A stretch of DNA of 14,561 bases from IMG/VR virus record IMGVR_UViG_2534682108_000011; one strand, given 5' to 3'. This stretch comes from a virus (lineage: Duplodnaviria > Heunggongvirae > Uroviricota > Caudoviricetes). Positions 610 through 14,561 of this stretch are shown here, piece by piece; the stretch's first letter is position 1; each line of letters starts with the position of its first letter. Position numbers and translations under genes: made by a program. The notes below the pieces were generated by a model, which ran no database searches, was not told the DNA's origin, and was given only the letters and a program-made list of their open reading frames with translations.

Positions 610-863
610 CCCCATTAACCACAGGCGAATTTCCGCCTTCGGTCATTCCTTAATCATCTGCGTAATCATAATGATTATTCAGCAAGCGCAATTTTGCGCT
701 TTGCTTAAAGTTCAGCGAGTTACCGCGCCGACTTCCTCAAATTGAGGTTTCCGAAAATATCAGCGGGTTAGCGATTAAGCTGACCATTAATTAAACTGCG
801 AAAATGTCGTAGTTGTGAGGGGTGTAGCCAACCCATTTTTGGGCCGTCGGGAATATCAACCAG

Positions 864-1145
864 TTACCGCCGCAACCGCTCCGGCTTCTTCCAGTGGTAC
901 GTTATTTTCTCCTTCTCCCGATACATCTCCACGCGGCGACGGTAGGCCAGCAACTCAAGAACTCTGGTTCGTATGTTGCGCATATCCACGCCATTAAGTT
1001 CTATACCATCACGGCGCATCACCTCAGCAACAACACGCGCATAGTTTTCGGCTGTCACGCTGTCCGGCTGCGTGGCCTGTTCGTCAGCCTGCTGGCTGAT
1101 TCCGGCAACGCGGCGGATTAATCCCGTTATTTCGGCTTCTGTCAT
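864..1145 (-). CDS. Hypothetical protein (93 aa) immediately downstream of terL
   Basis: ORF with ATG at 1145..1143 and an SD-like TGAGGT about 9 nt upstream; starts 14 nt after the terL stop. Charged, non-repetitive composition. No family recognised. Confidence 0.5.
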   Translation of the reverse strand: MTEAEITGLIRRVAGISQQADEQATQPDSVTAENYARVVAEVMRRDGIELNGVDMRNIRTRVLELLAYRRRVEMYREKEKITYHWKKPERLRR

Positions 1146-1158
1146 GCTGCTGACCTCA

Positions 1159-2820
1159 TTACACCCCGCTAAATTCTTCCAGTTTCTGGCGGTGGCTGTC
1201 GCTTATATCAAAAGCAAAATCCTCATGCTCTGCCTGGAATGTACCAAACGCCATCAGCGCCGCCACGCTCGGGTCTATCTTGTTCGGTGATTTTTTCTTG
1301 TTCGGCTTGATATTGGCGTTCGCGTCACTCTGCATCACGACGTTACTCATCGACCAGGACAACACCGGATCGCCACGATGCACAATCACCCTGCGGTTAA
1401 CAAAAACTTCGAACGATTTCGCCGCCGGACTGAATCTGAGGTAGGTTTGCGGGAACGGCTCCACCTCAAAACCTGCCCCCTGTAATTGCGTTCTGAGATG
1501 CGTGGCGTTCCACGTATCAAAGCCCACCAGCCTGATATTAAATTTCTCCGCGTCCTGCATGATGTCATCTCTGATCCGGTCGTAATCAATGCAGTCGCCA
1601 GGCGTTGTGCGTATCCAGCCTGCTTTAGCCCACTGACGATAGATGGCGCGGTTTTTATTGGCGGGGTTCTGTAGCTGAAATTCCGGCAGATAGTGACGGG
1701 AAACCAGCATAATGGTTTTACCGACCGGAAAGGCATAGCACACGCTGGAAATATCGCTGGTTGATGATAAGTCCAGCCCCGCGTAACACTCCTGGCCGTG
1801 TAAATCTTCCTCCGTGAACGTTCCGGCACACTCAGCCCATGCGCCGTTACCCATCCACGGGGTAGCCCCCTGGCACCAGATATTAAATCGCTTTGTCATC
1901 ATCTCCACCCACTGCGACGGAATACCCCGCGCTTTCTGGATGGTTGAGGCCAGTTTTTCACGATCGACGGAAACATCAATATTAGGGTTCGCCTTTATCC
2001 ACATCGCCGGATCATCAACCTCGTTTTCGTCGTCCAGTTCGTAAATCAGTACAAAAATTGAATCGTTAACCTCTTCGCCGTCCAGGATCTGGCAGCAATA
2101 ATCATAGTGCTGTTTACAGGCTGAAACGACGTTGCTGCCTGATGTGGTAATGGCAAATAACAGCCCTTCGGGACGTGCGCCCATCCCCAGCTCAAGCGCG
2201 GAATAAACGCCGTTATCGGGGTGCAAGTGGTATTCGTCCACGATGGAAAGGCTTGGGTTTGTTCCCTCGATGGTTGCCGCTTTTGCTGCCAGCGGCTTTA
2301 ACAGGCTGTTGCTTTTCGGGTGTATCACCTTATGCGCCTGAATATTCACCCGCCTGCGTAACGGTAGGGATAAAAGGCACATCTGACGCGCATCATCAAA
2401 GACGATCCGCGCCTGGTCACGGCTCACCGCTGCGGTGTAGATATCCTGCTGACCGTTCTCCATAATCAGAAACCAGTTAGCCAGAATCGCGGCGGTCGTG
2501 GATTTCGCATTTTTGCGCGGCACTTCGATAAAGGCGCTCGTGTATTTGCGCCGTCCGGTGGCCTTAACCTTAAAGCCGAGGATGCACGCAAAGGCGAACT
2601 GCTGCCACGGCTCCAGCTCAATGGGTCTGCCACGCATCGGTCCTTTTACGTGCGGGCACACCCTGGAAAAGGCAATAAACCGCTCCACAACCTCACGATC
2701 GAACGTGTAAAGGGGGCTTTTAAGGTCCGAAAAGTACCGTTTAACGGCCTGTTTCAGCCGTTTACAGGCCGGAATTTTGCCCGTTTTTACGTCTTCTGCG
2801 TACTTATTCCAGGCGGTCAA
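1159..2820 (-). CDS. terL: Terminase large subunit (553 aa)
   Basis: N-terminus MTAWNKYAEDVKTGKIPACKRL is typical of TerL; ATPase P-loop-like PRKNAKST; length and position after terS. Confidence 0.9.
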   Translation of the reverse strand: MTAWNKYAEDVKTGKIPACKRLKQAVKRYFSDLKSPLYTFDREVVERFIAFSRVCPHVKGPMRGRPIELEPWQQFAFACILGFKVKATGRRKYTSAFIEVPRKNAKSTTAAILANWFLIMENGQQDIYTAAVSRDQARIVFDDARQMCLLSLPLRRRVNIQAHKVIHPKSNSLLKPLAAKAATIEGTNPSLSIVDEYHLHPDNGVYSALELGMGARPEGLLFAITTSGSNVVSACKQHYDYCCQILDGEEVNDSIFVLIYELDDENEVDDPAMWIKANPNIDVSVDREKLASTIQKARGIPSQWVEMMTKRFNIWCQGATPWMGNGAWAECAGTFTEEDLHGQECYAGLDLSSTSDISSVCYAFPVGKTIMLVSRHYLPEFQLQNPANKNRAIYRQWAKAGWIRTTPGDCIDYDRIRDDIMQDAEKFNIRLVGFDTWNATHLRTQLQGAGFEVEPFPQTYLRFSPAAKSFEVFVNRRVIVHRGDPVLSWSMSNVVMQSDANANIKPNKKKSPNKIDPSVAALMAFGTFQAEHEDFAFDISDSHRQKLEEFSGV

Positions 2821-3282: not shown

Positions 3283-3465
3283 TCAGCGATTGCGGAAACA
3301 TTCCATAACCTCGCGGTCACGGTCGGTTAATCGCTTCGCTGTGATGCGTTCTGCGCGTCCTGACGCTTTATCTTTATGCCCTGTTTCCTGTGTCTTCCAT
3401 GCGTCACGCTGCCTTATAAGTCCACGGATAAGGCGGTTTTGTTCCCGCTCATTCATCAGCGTCAT
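3283..3465 (-). CDS. Possible small ORF (60 aa) in the HNH-terS intergenic region
   Basis: MTLMNEREQNRLIRGLIRQRDAWKTQETGHKDKASGRAERITAKRLTDRDREVMECFRNR; protein-like composition but no clear SD; overlaps the HNH stop. Could instead be non-coding cos-region DNA. Confidence 0.25.
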   Translation of the reverse strand: MTLMNEREQNRLIRGLIRQRDAWKTQETGHKDKASGRAERITAKRLTDRDREVMECFRNR

Positions 3466-8068: not shown

Positions 8069-8479
8069 TCAGAACGGAATACCGTCACCGTAAGGGTCAT
8101 CGCCTCCCGCTGGTGGCTGATTACCCTGTGTGCCTGTGGTTTTGCGTCTGTTCCCGCCAGGAAGTGCCGCACGGGCACTGATTACGCTGTCTGCAATAAC
8201 CTGATAACCCTGCCGCGTTTCCCCATTCTGTCCGGTCCACTGGCTGACCTGCATCGTGCCGGATACGCTGGCAACGTCGCCTTTTTGATGTTTAGCCAGG
8301 AAGTCGGCCTGCTTACCAAATGCGATGACCGATAGCCATAACGTCGCCTGCCCATCCTGCGCCTGACTACATGGCAGCGATACCGCCATACGCGCCAGCG
8401 TCATCGGTGTACCCTTGCTGGTCTGTTTTACCTGCGGGTCGTCCACCAGCCGCCCGTAAGCTGCTATCTGTGCTGTCAT
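8069..8479 (-). CDS. ssb: Single-stranded DNA-binding protein (136 aa)
   Basis: OB-fold-like core, Gly/Pro/Gln-rich linker and acidic C-terminal tail ending DDPYGDGIPF (compare canonical SSB ending DDDIPF). Confidence 0.8.
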   Translation of the reverse strand: MTAQIAAYGRLVDDPQVKQTSKGTPMTLARMAVSLPCSQAQDGQATLWLSVIAFGKQADFLAKHQKGDVASVSGTMQVSQWTGQNGETRQGYQVIADSVISARAALPGGNRRKTTGTQGNQPPAGGDDPYGDGIPF

Positions 8480-8754
8480 GATTCCACCTCTCCGGTTTTA
8501 ACGTTGATGGTTGTTACCTGTTCCGCTTCGGCAATCTCCCGCTCTGTCAGCGTGGCAAAATTTGCCGCCGTCGTGGTCATGAATGCGCTTATCAGTTCGG
8601 GATGTGCTTTCGCGTATCCTTCCCCCGCGTGGCGGTCTATCGTTCTGATTGCCACCTTTAAAGCGTGCTCTGTCATGTCTAACGCGCGATATTTCGGTTC
8701 TGTTCTGTCTCTGCGTTTTTTGAGTGATTTATTAAATTTCCCTGAAGTGTGCAT
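8476..8754 (-). CDS. Hypothetical protein (92 aa)
   Basis: ORF with a GAGGGGG SD-like sequence upstream; stop overlaps the ssb start. No family recognised. Confidence 0.45.
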   Translation of the reverse strand: MHTSGKFNKSLKKRRDRTEPKYRALDMTEHALKVAIRTIDRHAGEGYAKAHPELISAFMTTTAANFATLTEREIAEAEQVTTINVKTGEVES

Positions 8755-8802: not shown

Positions 8803-9028
8803 TGTCTACCTTATCTACCTTAGTGGCCCTCATACCAGTAATGGCGCGGCTTTCAGCGGGGTAGAGTGCTTTTATCCACTATCTACCCCGTGTCTACCTC
8901 CCTGTCTGATTCAGGTAAAATCAGGTAGAGAGGGTAGATAGTGGGTAGACAGTAAAAAAAGGCTATCTACCTAACTTAATGCACTGAATTAAATGTATTT
9001 TTCTTTACTCAGGTAGACAGGGTAGACA
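8803..9028. repeat. Iteron cluster, putative replication origin: at least 10 copies of TCTACC / GGTAGA in both orientations, flanking an A/T-rich segment (about 8950-9010)
   Basis: Copies at 8803-8810, 8812-8819, 8859-8865, 8881-8887, 8891-8898, 8924-8930, 8933-8940, 8944-8951, 8964-8971, 9012-9019, 9021-9028. Ends 15 bp downstream of the primase stop. Confidence 0.7.
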
Positions 9029-9042
9029 GCAATTACAAAAAA

Positions 9043-10797
9043 TTATAAAAACGCGTCGCACTCGTCTGTTGTTATTGCGTTAGTCTGCGTTACTCCCTTA
9101 ACTTTCCGCGTAATATATTCATGTCCGTAAACTTTCGCGGCTGGCTTCATAGCCTTGCCAAAGTCATTTACGTTTAGCGGTTTGCTCCTGCCTGCGTACG
9201 CCATAAACGCCAGATAGACGCGGTAAAGGCTGTTTCTGGTCGTGTACTTCACTGAATCGCCACCGCCGCCCATCATCAGGCCGCGTGCTTCCTCCAGAAA
9301 ATTCAGGAACTGGCAAAACTCAATAACCGGATCCGTCTGTTGCTTTATTGCCAGAGCTTCATCACCGTCACGCTGTTCCAGTAGTAAAGCCCGTGCCTTC
9401 TCAGGGTCGGTAAAGTTCGCCAGCAATCGGCGGATAATGACAGGGATTTCAGCCGCGATCTTTTCCGGTAGCTCCCTGTCTTTTTCGGCCTCACTGACGA
9501 TATTGTCGAAACGGAAAATCACGCGACGACGTGCCACACCTCCGGCCCGTTCGGTGAATATCATCGGGTTATTGTTGGTCGCCAGCACCACCGCCCTGAT
9601 TACCGCCGTGAAACGCTTTTCGTATTTCGGGTTAATTTCCACGGGGTCACCGCCCGTGATTTTCTTGATGCCCGTTCCTTCGCCTGTATATTTCGGCTGG
9701 TCAGCCAGGACGATAAGACGACTCCCGACAACCTGCGCACGTCCACCAGCATCATCAAGCGATGTCATTTCAGCGCTTACCGTGTTCTGTTTCCCTGCCA
9801 GAAGGCTGGCTATGTGTGTGAATGTACTTTTACCGCTCCCGCCGTCTCCGGTGGCCTCAATAAACATCTGCCAGTCGTACCGGTTCGCCATAATCATGTA
9901 CAGCGCGGCACATATACGCATCATCTTGCGCGGGTCTTTTCCGGCTGCGTGCTCAAGCCATTTATGAAAGTTTGGCGCGTTATCGCGGATGTTCTCCCCT
10001 GGTGCTGGTGGCGTGTACTCAATGCCGTTGTGCGTGGTGATCCAGTTCTCCGGCGTGTGCGGGGAAAATTCCCCCGTTTTCAGGTCAAGCGCACCATTGG
10101 CGAACGGCAACAAATCGCCGGACGGCTCGCCCATTGGTTCGGCAATAACTTTTAACGCTTCCACGGCGTTATTGATTACGCGCTTGCTGAAAGTGGCCCT
10201 GTGCTCTGAATAGATCGCCACCATTTCGCGGCTAAGTTCCATTGTGCTGACCGGACACCATACCCCGCCGCGCCATACGTGAACGATTTCACTTTCAGGA
10301 TGTACGCAAACGCCATCAAAGCGATCGGCAAGCAGCTGCGCGCGCTCACTGTCCGCCATCTGCGAAAGTTGCGCCTTTTGCTTTACCGGAAGCTCAATGA
10401 CCAGACCATCAGAAAGATTCTGGCGCTCACGGGCCAGATATTCGCGCCAGTTCTCCACCTTCTGACCGTGCATACCATCAGGGTAAAAATTTGCATCCTG
10501 TACGCCTGCCGCCGCCAGCTTCTGACCAATCGCCTTTATCATTACTGGCGCAAGATATCCGGCCCTGAATATGCGCACGGATTTTCTGCCTTCCGGCACA
10601 ATTTGCAGCTTATCCAGTTCGGATAACTGCTGCTCCCCAAGCCACACAGGAGGCTCATTATCTCCGGCCATACGCGCGTCATGTTCCTGCCATTGTTTTG
10701 CGTGTGACCAGGCATCACTACCCGCAAAAATAATGACTTCTGTTTCTTTGTGTTTTATGCCGCGTGACTGCTGTTTTACGTTCGGTGCCAGTTTCAT
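9043..10797 (-). CDS. Replication initiator: DNA primase with C-terminal P-loop NTPase/helicase domain (584 aa)
   Basis: Walker A GDGGSGKST in the C-terminal half; size and layout resemble P4-alpha-family primase-helicases; origin iterons immediately downstream. Confidence 0.8.
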   Translation of the reverse strand: MKLAPNVKQQSRGIKHKETEVIIFAGSDAWSHAKQWQEHDARMAGDNEPPVWLGEQQLSELDKLQIVPEGRKSVRIFRAGYLAPVMIKAIGQKLAAAGVQDANFYPDGMHGQKVENWREYLARERQNLSDGLVIELPVKQKAQLSQMADSERAQLLADRFDGVCVHPESEIVHVWRGGVWCPVSTMELSREMVAIYSEHRATFSKRVINNAVEALKVIAEPMGEPSGDLLPFANGALDLKTGEFSPHTPENWITTHNGIEYTPPAPGENIRDNAPNFHKWLEHAAGKDPRKMMRICAALYMIMANRYDWQMFIEATGDGGSGKSTFTHIASLLAGKQNTVSAEMTSLDDAGGRAQVVGSRLIVLADQPKYTGEGTGIKKITGGDPVEINPKYEKRFTAVIRAVVLATNNNPMIFTERAGGVARRRVIFRFDNIVSEAEKDRELPEKIAAEIPVIIRRLLANFTDPEKARALLLEQRDGDEALAIKQQTDPVIEFCQFLNFLEEARGLMMGGGGDSVKYTTRNSLYRVYLAFMAYAGRSKPLNVNDFGKAMKPAAKVYGHEYITRKVKGVTQTNAITTDECDAFL

Positions 10798-11093
10798 TTT
10801 TTACCCCTGAATCCGTTAATCATGGTTTTCAGCTTCTGGATGTTTGCCCGTGCCCTGGCGTTGCTGGTGGGCACGTTATGCGGCGCGGTCTGTACCAGAG
10901 AAAAATCACGCCGGAACTGATAAACAGGCATCACGCAATCATATTCGTAACCTTCACGGCGGTAAGTTACGCACCGTCCCGCCACGCCCTTAATCATTAC
11001 CGTGCCGCCGTACTGGTCGCGGTAAATATCGCCGCGCGTAAATTTAGGGTGAGTGTTGCCACTGGCAGTTAAGCCAGAATATTTAAGTTTCAT
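10794..11093 (-). CDS. Hypothetical protein (99 aa)
   Basis: ORF whose stop overlaps the primase start by 4 nt. No family recognised. Confidence 0.5.
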   Translation of the reverse strand: MKLKYSGLTASGNTHPKFTRGDIYRDQYGGTVMIKGVAGRCVTYRREGYEYDCVMPVYQFRRDFSLVQTAPHNVPTSNARARANIQKLKTMINGFRGKK

Positions 11094-11098
11094 TATTT

Positions 11099-11332
11099 TT
11101 ATTCTCCGGTGTGCTGTTCTTTATATATATCGTGCAATAGATCTATTTCTTGCAGTTCCATTATTACAGGCTCAAGAAGCGTTATTAATGCCGTGGCAAT
11201 TCTTGATTTTTGTTTGTTGCGTTCATTGTCGCCAAGTGTTTCAAGCCATATGCGTAATATTTCCATCATGCTTTCACTGTGAGAAAGTGCAAGAAATGCG
11301 CGGTCTATTGTTTCAAGGTAAATATCACGCAT
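11099..11332 (-). CDS. Hypothetical protein (77 aa)
   Basis: ORF with ATG at 11332, a GGGGA SD-like sequence upstream and a possible coupled upstream small ORF. No family recognised. Confidence 0.45.
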   Translation of the reverse strand: MRDIYLETIDRAFLALSHSESMMEILRIWLETLGDNERNKQKSRIATALITLLEPVIMELQEIDLLHDIYKEQHTGE

Positions 11333-11547
11333 ATTAATCCCCGTCCGTCGTTTTTCTTAAAATAACCTCTGTCACGAAATCAGCATAATCGGCGACGATA
11401 TTCAGTACATCAAGCCCCGTTGATTTATATTCTCTCGTGGAAAGTAAGAAAAAAGCCGCTCTAATAAGCTCTGGCATTGACGAAAGCGCATCAGCCGCAT
11501 CATCAGGAACGCCGGAAAATTACTGTTTCAGGGAATTAAAACGATCA

Positions 11548-11787
11548 TCACGCATAACCCCCCCCATTTTCACAATCAGCAATCAGGATGGCTTTAGCCT
11601 CATTCAGCGCCATATCCGCACTAAGTTGCATAACCGCCAGCGAATGAGGAACGAAAGCCCCTGCATATTCTGTTTCACTGGTGGCGTGCTTATGCGCCAT
11701 GTCAGCAATAACAGAAATATCAATAAGCGCGTGCATCAGCGTAGTGAGCGCGGCGGCTGCTGCGTCCGGTGTGGTTTTATTGCACAT
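11548..11787 (-). CDS. Hypothetical protein (79 aa from the MCNKTTPD start)
   Basis: Strong SD AGGAGG (complement of 11794-11799) 6 nt upstream of ATG 11787..11785; the ORF track's longer start lacks an SD. Confidence 0.5.
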   Translation of the reverse strand: MCNKTTPDAAAAALTTLMHALIDISVIADMAHKHATSETEYAGAFVPHSLAVMQLSADMALNEAKAILIADCENGGGYA

Positions 11788-12781: not shown

Positions 12782-12970
12782 TTAATGAACTGCCTTGCAG
12801 CTATCCTTCCAGGCCAGAACCTCGGATAAAGACCAGCCAACGGAACGACCGCCAAGTTTACGACGTGATGGGAATTGTCCGGCCTTTTCCAGGCGGTAGC
12901 GGCATGAGCGGCTAAGGCCTGTTAGCTTTTCGCATTCTTTTTCACGTATAAACCGATCAGTGCTTAACAC
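12782..12970 (-). CDS. alpA: AlpA-family regulator / excisionase-like protein (62 aa, GTG start)
   Basis: LTGLSRSCRYRLEKAGQFPSRRKLGGRSVGWSLSEVLAW is the AlpA/Vis/TorI winged-helix signature; SD AAGGGG 5 nt upstream of GTG at 12970. Confidence 0.85.
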   Translation of the reverse strand: MLSTDRFIREKECEKLTGLSRSCRYRLEKAGQFPSRRKLGGRSVGWSLSEVLAWKDSCKAVH

Positions 12971-13343: not shown

Positions 13344-14561
13344 TTATTTTCTTCTGGCTACGGGTAGCGTGGTTACGTTTTCATGTGTTCCCGCCAGTAT
13401 CCCTAACCGCTCCGTCCACATATCCAGCGCATTGCGTTTAGCATCCAGATAACGGGAATGATTATAAACTCGCTGCATTCCTGGCATCTGGTGGCCTGTA
13501 AGCTGCTCCACGACATGCGGATCAACGCCTAAATCGTTCAGCATGGTTGTAAAGGTGCGCCGGATGTCATGCAGTGACCAGTGAGGATGATTAAGCCTCC
13601 TGTGCGCTAATCTTCCATACTGCGATACGCTGGCCTCCTGTTTCACTGCCCCCAGCAATAAGCCCGTGTGCCTGTTCTGCTCCACCAGCTGCGTGACGAA
13701 CGGCAGGATCGCTTCCGGTATGGGCCGGAATATTGCGACCTTCGTTTTGCTGTGCTCCTTCGGAACGGTCCATAGCATTTCCGTAAAATCCCACTCCCCG
13801 ATCTCCGATAACCTCAGTTCTACCGTTCTGGCTCCGAAGACAATCAGGAGGCGGATTAACGCGACGTAGTAAGGGGAAAATATTTTTTTATCCAGCGCCT
13901 GCAATAACTCGCCCAGTTCTTTGGTGCTTAAGACACGTTCGCTTATATCCGGTTTTTTCCCAACGTCCGCCACGTTCAGATCGTCCAGAACGTTGCTGAT
14001 TGCATAGCGCCGCCTACGGCAGAACTTAAGCGCCTGTTTGCACGCCTGTAGCACGAATCCGGCAGTAACAGGCGTTCGCTTTGCCACCTGGTCAAAACAG
14101 GCCAGCCAGTGCCGTAGCTCGCATTTATCTAGCGGCATAGCACCAATCTGCTGTATTACGTGATTATTAAGTCGCCTTTTCAGGGCGATATAATCCACGC
14201 GGTTTTCCTTTACGTAATACTCAAGCCAGTAGGTGAGCGCATCGCCAACCGTTACGGGCTTTAACGCTTCCTGTACGGTGTAATTCATCTCATGACGTGG
14301 ATTTTTCCCCTCAGCCAGCCATGCGCGGCACTGGGCGGCTTTTTCCCTGGCTGCTTTCAGACTCAGATCAGGATAATTTCCCAGCTTAATACGTTCCGGT
14401 CGTGTCTCTCTTCCCGTTCCTGCCCTGTAAGTGAAATACCAGGTTAATTTCCCTGATGTTAAATATTTCACGCTCAGATTTCCGCCATCGCTATAAAACG
14501 TGTTTTTCTCCGCTGGCTTACCATGAAGTTTCCTTAGCAATGTGTCGCTCAGTTTGTTCAT
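13344..14561 (-). CDS. int: Tyrosine site-specific integrase, P4-like (405 aa), start codon at the window edge
   Basis: N-terminal arm-binding-type domain (KLSDTLLRKLHGKPAEKNTFYSDGGNLSVKYLTSGKLTWYFTYR), C-terminal catalytic region with HDIRRTFTT and conserved His/Tyr context. Confidence 0.9.
   Translation of the reverse strand: MNKLSDTLLRKLHGKPAEKNTFYSDGGNLSVKYLTSGKLTWYFTYRAGTGRETRPERIKLGNYPDLSLKAAREKAAQCRAWLAEGKNPRHEMNYTVQEALKPVTVGDALTYWLEYYVKENRVDYIALKRRLNNHVIQQIGAMPLDKCELRHWLACFDQVAKRTPVTAGFVLQACKQALKFCRRRRYAISNVLDDLNVADVGKKPDISERVLSTKELGELLQALDKKIFSPYYVALIRLLIVFGARTVELRLSEIGEWDFTEMLWTVPKEHSKTKVAIFRPIPEAILPFVTQLVEQNRHTGLLLGAVKQEASVSQYGRLAHRRLNHPHWSLHDIRRTFTTMLNDLGVDPHVVEQLTGHQMPGMQRVYNHSRYLDAKRNALDMWTERLGILAGTHENVTTLPVARRK

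Follow-up and report, generated by a model that had tools for sequence, protein, structure and literature searches.

The stretch of DNA considered here (hereafter the window; 14,561 nt, IMG/VR record IMGVR_UViG_2534682108_000011) closes its packaging genes with a small open reading frame of 93 codons, which we refer to as ORF93, directly behind the large terminase gene terL. An initial annotation, made from the sequence alone, set this ORF and four other small ORFs at the boundaries of gene modules, found no recognisable family for them, and proposed that they are helper-interference, anti-phage or otherwise accessory factors. The locus thus raises the question of whether ORF93 is cargo of that kind or a part of the island itself. 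About three out of ten complete Escherichia coli genomes carry the gene, as do the two laboratory prototypes of the Gram-negative PICIs, and it is still without a name or a function.

The island and its gene order

By its gene content the window is a capsid-forming PICI (cf-PICI) of the EcCIEDL933 type, inserted in tqsA. Islands of this class have been defined in two studies (10.1101/2022.09.08.507074; 10.1101/2025.02.11.637232), the second of which includes the lack of tail and lysis genes and a size of 10-18 kb among its criteria; the window carries the gene set, is free of tail and lysis genes, measures 14.5 kb and has all of its genes on the minus strand. Along that strand the integrase is followed by AlpA, small ORFs with a DUF4222 protein, primase, the origin region, a 92-aa ORF, SSB and PerC, and then by the major capsid protein, HK97-type protease, portal, head closure, connector, HNH, P27-type TerS, TerL and ORF93, beyond which lie some 700 nt free of genes and a truncated tqsA. 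The features that frame the question are as follows.

13344-14561, minus strand: integrase
12782-12970, minus strand: AlpA
9043-10797, minus strand: primase
1159-2820, minus strand: large terminase (terL), directly upstream of ORF93
1154-1157, minus strand: GAGG, Shine-Dalgarno sequence of ORF93, as read from the sequence
864-1145, minus strand (read from 1145 to 864): ORF93, 93 aa, ATG start, 11.0 kDa, pI 9.8
156-493, strand not given: island arm at the tqsA junction, 90% identical to the EcCIEDL933 arm and 89% to the EcCICFT073 arm (over 160-407)

The island is a mosaic, with a packaging half that is 97% identical in DNA to EcCIEDL933 and a replication half that is 93.6% identical to EcCICFT073. 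A stretch of the E. coli O157:H16 genome NZ_CP062876 matches the window at 99.97% identity, with one mismatch and three indels, and RefSeq marks the integrase there as frameshifted. Positions 1-165 of the window belong to the tqsA gene that the island interrupts, and yet its integrase is 92% identical to that of EcCIEDL933 and its distal arm 90%; EcCIEDL933 sits between roxA and phoQ, and EcCICFT073 is at the roxA/phoQ site too.

ORF93 as a gene

ORF93 had been described as tightly coupled to terL, and this description is accurate: the terL stop codon occupies 1161-1159, the GAGG follows at 1157-1154 and the ATG comes 8 nt further on, so that ORF93 starts 13 nt after terL. The arrangement suggests an 11-kDa protein translated from the end of the late (capsid/packaging) operon. 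RefSeq annotates it as WP_000133423.1, and the profile phrog_1561, a family of unknown function, matches residues 1-93 of 93 (E=2.9e-56). On these matches we place ORF93 in the family of EcCICFT073 c1505, EcCIEDL933 RS08745 and phrog_1561.

The 83 copies of ORF93 collected for an analysis of selection represent 50 different DNA sequences that encode 41 different proteins. Over the 50 DNA versions pN/pS, when pooled, is 0.24 and dN/dS has a pairwise median of 0.20, and the lowest values fall in the second predicted helix (0.11) and in the last eleven codons (0.05). ORF93 is a real, conserved gene under purifying selection (dN/dS of about 0.2), and conservation, on which the initial annotation had made its own reading depend, is borne out for it. 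It might be supposed that there is no functional protein and that the frame is open merely through overlapping cis-acting DNA or RNA, as the last codons overlap the first of the repeat units described below and the coding end resembles the repeat. Synonymous divergence in the last eleven codons is nevertheless normal (pS 0.28) while the amino acids are fixed, and the tail Y-x-W-K-K-P-E-R-L-R-R is therefore constrained as protein and not as DNA alone; an overlapping DNA signal as the sole cause of the invariant tail is ruled out. The frame is intact in all 41 protein versions and a homologue at 41-45% identity is full-length, and the idea of a non-functional frame, contradicted by the selection analysis, is scarcely credible.

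Distribution of the family

ORF93 DNA is present in 1567 of 5426 complete E. coli genomes (29%), at 2012 places and with up to six per genome, and the E. coli copies are always annotated as 'hypothetical protein'. A search of 5.8 billion proteins returned 1028 relatives, the best 120 of which are all close and, where a source is named, come from E. coli or Shigella. Among 1.8 billion representatives at 50% identity there are 36 clusters, most of them fragments; two long eukaryotic repeat proteins (mucin-like and ankyrin) that appeared in this search were rejected as spurious, since they arise from summed scores. The most distant full-length relatives are from Salmonella (P0152 cluster, 45% identity) and Citrobacter (P0132), and a scan of species-representative genomes gave a single locus, in Shigella flexneri. 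Against 50,697 phage records, neither ORF93 (tblastn) nor the 700 nt downstream of it (blastn) had a match. The family is narrow, restricted to Enterobacteriaceae and specific to PICIs.

Position in islands with different packaging modules

The place of the gene was surveyed in 80 cf-PICI loci with a TerL 92-100% identical to that of the window, of which 77 are informative, three contigs being too short. ORF93 is present in 59 of these loci, with a gap to TerL of 5-14 nt in 58 of the 59, and absent from 18. Seventeen of the 18 loci lacking it (L137, L140, L142 and 14 others, all from IMG/VR) share one common downstream sequence, on long contigs and with a TerL 92-93% identical to the window's. 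In L137, the one examined, some 530 nt further downstream comes the C-terminal half of a different terminase gene, and this cf-PICI is therefore inserted in a prophage terL.

In each of the following island types the homologue comes last, behind changing neighbours: terL in cf-PICIs including EcCIEDL933, rppA in EcCICFT073 (where the gene upstream of c1505 matches RppC, PDB 6HLK, at E=5e-31), a DUF1441 protein in other islands, a small terminase of 180 aa where the capsid genes are lambda E/D-like, and a protein with an N-terminal helix-turn-helix in the Salmonella type. In a set of 80 IMG/VR loci, the homologue is preceded by a TerS-like gene in 35, by a cf-PICI TerL in 23, by an RppA-like gene in 12, and in the remaining 10 by a capsid gene with no terminase-like gene. 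The two prototypes illustrate the range. The last gene of EcCIEDL933 (EDL933_RS08745, WP_000133425.1) is 87% identical to ORF93 and also starts 13 nt after terL. In EcCICFT073, c1505 (C_RS07030, WP_000133413.1) is 85% identical over all 93 residues, is likewise the last island gene and is followed by the same box motif, but it lies behind rppA and an inverted cos2 after a gap of 279 nt, whereas ORF93 follows terL after 13 nt.

Genuine cargo sits beyond ORF93, in the form of an abortive-infection (Abi) gene in one island (L013) and several extra ORFs in another (L028). ORF93 is therefore not the variable accessory slot, and the true 3' slot comes after it; of the 77 cf-PICI loci that are informative 59 have this same gene, and so do four further PICI module types. 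The term accessory holds in the sense of dispensable, as the deletion discussed below indicates, but the suggestion of a typical accessory slot does not, the gene keeping the same place across packaging modules. ORF93 closes the late operon in PICIs that have at least four different capsid/packaging modules, and it is not cargo. As a backbone gene it moves the 3' accessory slot to the DNA beyond, and it no longer counts as a candidate defence gene.

Published experiments on ORF93 relatives

To locate published clones and deletions, the primers of Table S5 of PMC6739421 were mapped onto the CFT073 genome. The clone pJP2220 ('pBAD18 c1505'), carried by strain JP13135 (PMC6739421), spans 16314-16689 of the EcCICFT073 locus (L016) in the sense orientation, with the whole homologue (16373-16654) inside. 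In the lambda-interference screen, only c1503 (rppA) among the genes cloned from the region cut lambda plaques (PMC6739421); primer mapping shows that the c1505 clone was in the screened set, which makes c1505 a non-scoring gene in a screen that covered lambda only. The arms of the 'c1504-07::cat' deletion map to 16103 and 16997, so that the deletion takes out cos2, the homologue and a further 340 nt or so behind it, and this island, in lambda and phi80 lysogens, is listed for transfer assays and used as the wild type (PMC6739421). It follows from the mapped clone and deletion that c1505 neither blocks lambda nor is needed for transfer of EcCICFT073 by lambda or phi80. The published tests on this relative, 85% identical to ORF93, thus indicate no block of lambda and no need of the gene for spread of the island, and they speak against both the helper interference and the transfer phenotype of a deletion that had been envisaged. 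If ORF93 has no measurable effect it could be safely removed from PICI delivery vehicles, as has in effect been done in c1504-07::cat. In the same locus cos2 (16297-16308) lies inverted between rppA and the homologue, and cos1 (15558-15569) just upstream of rppA.

In a preprint on EcCIEDL933, mutation of 'hypothetical gene 1792' severely lowers transfer. ORF93 was considered for this gene and rejected: with RS08600 equal to EDL933_1767, and with EDL933_1785 (a 9-kDa CP-933C protein with an upstream gap of 406 nt) fitting RS08695, calibration of the locus tags would put 1792 on a 60-aa ORF in the HNH-terS interval and would give ORF93 a tag of about 1795. In the window this 60-aa ORF is at 3283-3465 on the minus strand, in the HNH-terS gap where HK97-like phages have cos, and is 100% identical in three cf-PICIs; by the same calibration it is probably hypothetical gene 1792. 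Both a protein-coding role and the covering of a cos site are possible for it.

The ORF93 protein

The description of ORF93 as having no recognisable family stands, in that scans of Pfam, NCBIfam and PADLOC found no family and a PDB sequence search matched no chain. The remote-homology and structural searches suggested by the initial annotation were run on ORF93, and three fold searches with its model returned no structural match and no recognisable nucleic-acid-binding fold. For the wider set the description holds less well: the 99-aa ORF is a DUF4222 protein, and all five ORFs match PHROG families, albeit of unknown function. PADLOC gave 0 families at E<=1 for ORF93, the four other small ORFs, the ORF at 3283-3465 and the Salmonella homologue P0152, and the anti-phage function proposed for the five ORFs finds no counterpart among its models.

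The AlphaFold model, built on a 10-sequence alignment and of moderate confidence (pLDDT 72), has helices at residues 3-14, 27-45 and 52-82; residues 17-25 form a disordered linker, and the chain ends in a short tail. The net charge is -4 in the acidic N-terminal third and +8 over the basic residues 52-93, a pattern that divergent homologues share, and the basic C-terminal half ends in a near-invariant WKKPERLRR. Three known kinds of small protein invite comparison. Rpp proteins (redirecting phage packaging; DUF1441-like TerS mimics; RppC structure 6HLK) are also small PICI proteins of the distal late region and neighbours of ORF93 homologues, but they have 144-153 aa and a winged-helix domain and block lambda, whereas ORF93 shows no similarity to RppA/B/C or DUF1441, with no Pfam and no PDB sequence match, and c1505 does not block lambda. 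The gene for lambda gpW is small too and comes next after terL in lambdoid phages (an order seen in a lambdoid prophage); ORF93 differs from gpW-type head-completion proteins, whose fold is alpha/beta, in having no Pfam match, an all-helical, three-helix model with no structural match, and relatives in islands that have no terL.

The third comparison is with lambda N and its nut sites. N is a small basic protein, with an arginine-rich stretch and then a tryptophan, encoded beside units of a linear box (boxA) and a short hairpin with an A-rich loop (boxB). Antiterminators of this type bind a boxB-like RNA hairpin through the arginine-rich motif and modify RNA polymerase. The basic C-terminal half of ORF93, in which an arginine-rich stretch is likewise followed by a tryptophan, and the sense-oriented box-hairpin units behind its gene may be likened to the ingredients of this arrangement. 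The differences are that ORF93 has no sequence similarity to N (an hhalign profile comparison gave a probability of 0.9%), that its arginine-rich part is C-terminal, that the operon has the units at its end rather than at its start, and that the box is unlike boxA.

Repeats at the right end of the island

Behind ORF93 lie three box-hairpin units and, beyond them, a longer run of inverted repeats.

829-870, minus strand: unit 1, box GCGGTAACTGGTTGATAT (870-853), which holds the ORF93 stop codon, and hairpin CGGCCCAAAAATGGGTTG (846-829)
735-774, minus strand: unit 2, box TCGCTAACCCGCTGATAT (774-757) and hairpin CCTCAATTTGAGG (747-735)
684-726, minus strand: unit 3, box GCGGTAACTCGCTGAACT (726-709) and hairpin AAGCGCAAAATTGCGCTT (701-684)
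440-640, strand not given: run of five or six inverted repeats, with a core at 492-614 (123 nt)

Each unit consists of an 18-nt box (consensus GCGGTAACYNNYTGATAT), a spacer of 5-9 nt and a hairpin of 5-10 bp with an A/T loop of 3-4 nt. Three copies of the motif TAAC[TC]NNNTGA, all in the sense orientation, fall in the first 150 nt behind the ORF93 stop codon and one more lies elsewhere in the window, where 0.87 occurrences would be expected on both strands of the whole 14.5 kb. Islands carry from one to seven units, always in the sense orientation, also behind the homologue in other PICI types, and units are retained beside the Salmonella homologue of 41-45% identity. Across islands 29 distinct hairpin sequences fill the same place in the unit, their stems varying and always pairing, and since so many sequences occupy one position, pairing has been kept while the sequence changes. 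The box has 4 matches in 19.3 kb of the 18 cf-PICI loci that lack ORF93, against 103 in 47.2 kb otherwise; the joint loss of ORF93 and the units is essentially one evolutionary event. A test of G-U pairs for the RNA strand gave 3 against 1, on too few mismatches, and because the hairpins also fold equally on both strands, an RNA and a DNA role of the units are indistinguishable. ORF93 and the units that start from its own stop codon form a right-end module common to PICIs with unrelated capsid/packaging modules.

The possibility that the downstream repeats are a lambda-like cos site was rejected, because a lambda-type cosN was not found above chance in the window, nor in the other loci scanned with up to one mismatch allowed. 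The run at 440-640 folds at -93 kcal/mol, compared with -55 for shuffled sequences (z -8.6 on the minus strand and -10.0 on the plus strand), and has no match in Rfam or among phages. PICI subtypes with an ORF93 identity of only 65-81% still share the core at 92-95%. EcCIEDL933 differs from the window at this end in having six box units and no 123-nt core, and in lying at the roxA/phoQ site rather than in tqsA.

Possible roles of ORF93

What is firm is that ORF93 belongs to the backbone of enterobacterial PICIs, as a conserved gene that can be dispensed with, and is neither cargo nor a lambda-interference factor. As the best explanation overall we tentatively propose, giving it not quite an even chance, that this real but dispensable gene and the right-end module belong together, with ORF93 acting on the units. 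That it does so by binding them as nucleic acid, and in this way sets the end of the late operon, is a prediction that we hold to be possible but doubtful. ORF93 would be a small helical hairpin, probably a dimer, whose arginine-rich C-terminal half and constrained tail would contact the box-hairpin units, either in the RNA at the 3' end of the late transcript or in the DNA; this contact might then set the operon end through termination, through read-through to the 3' cargo or across attP into int, or through transcript stability. It seems unlikely that ORF93 and its units are an undescribed cis/trans module for read-through into the 3' cargo, or across attP into int after circularisation, with an N/nut-like logic and unrelated parts. 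Against binding stand the failure to recognise a nucleic-acid-binding fold and the islands that carry a single unit, and the physical linkage of gene and units could be simple co-inheritance of neighbouring DNA. Any role of the two is non-essential in the laboratory, because EcCICFT073 still transfers without both. If ORF93 does act on its linked repeats, it would add an extra regulatory layer to satellite late gene expression.

ORF93 might instead be a modulator that works by protein-protein contact, its near-invariant C-terminal peptide docking on an invariably present partner from the host or the PICI backbone (Int, AlpA, primase, SSB or a host factor, for instance) and tuning induction, exploitation of the helper or competition with co-resident satellites, with the repeats unrelated. 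We judge this rather unlikely, as it leaves unexplained why the units track the gene and offers a candidate partner only, but it would account for the tail being the most constrained segment; its partner would have to be common to PICIs with differing packaging modules, the genomes with up to six copies imply that satellites co-reside, and dispensability in single-island laboratory assays suits a competitive or fine-tuning role. In 70 of the 80 loci the gene comes immediately behind one for TerL, TerS or Rpp; this position, the basic protein and the apparent co-transcription with packaging genes would fit a non-essential packaging or head-completion helper, made last and aiding cos cutting, protection of DNA ends or capsid closure. 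Such a helper is improbable: the other 10 of the 80 loci have capsid genes and no terminase-like gene upstream, the family is common to islands of lambda-type, Rpp-redirected and HNH/P27-type packaging with different cos sites, it has no phage homologue, it is absent from an EcCICFT073 construct that transfers well and, going by the locus tags, the list of genes that EcCIEDL933 needs for transfer apparently does not include it.

The reading from which the question started, an anti-phage or helper-interference factor carried as cargo, has in its favour the literature, which places PICI immune systems at the 5' and 3' ends and expects them after the cf-PICI packaging operon, and the small size of a gene with no assigned family function. 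We consider it very improbable, since the gene is conserved rather than variable and cargo lies beyond it, pBAD18-c1505 caused no drop in lambda plaques, PADLOC gave no match, and the product, a lone protein of 93 aa, has neither an enzymatic nor an effector domain. The preferred reading remains a backbone gene acting on the units at the right end.

The other small ORFs

The four further small ORFs of the initial annotation are all present where it placed them, on the minus strand, as is ORF93, and lie in the other half of the island.

8476-8754, minus strand: 92-aa ORF, phrog_1231, between the origin region and ssb
10794-11093, minus strand: 99-aa DUF4222 protein (Pfam E=2e-23), whose stop overlaps the primase start
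11099-11332, minus strand: 77-aa ORF, phrog_2196, 84% identical to an EcCICFT073 gene
11334-11555, minus strand: pseudogene with an internal stop, homologue of EcCICFT073 C_RS06970
11548-11787, minus strand: 79-aa ORF, phrog_5146, intact homologue (57%) of EcCICFT073 C_RS06965

The four belong to the replication and regulation modules. The 92-aa ORF has the same place in all seven PICI loci that cover the region, and every PICI examined has both it and the DUF4222 ORF as fixed components of its replication module. Near the 92-aa ORF, the origin region downstream of the primase gene contains a long imperfect hairpin (8875-8956), on which an Rfam scan of the window placed its only match, a chance one to mir-135. 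A 47-aa ORF at 11334-11477 is the C-terminal remnant of the pseudogene and is 98% identical to C_RS06970. The family phrog_2512 (154 aa) spans this pseudogene (11334-11555) together with the neighbouring 79-aa ORF.
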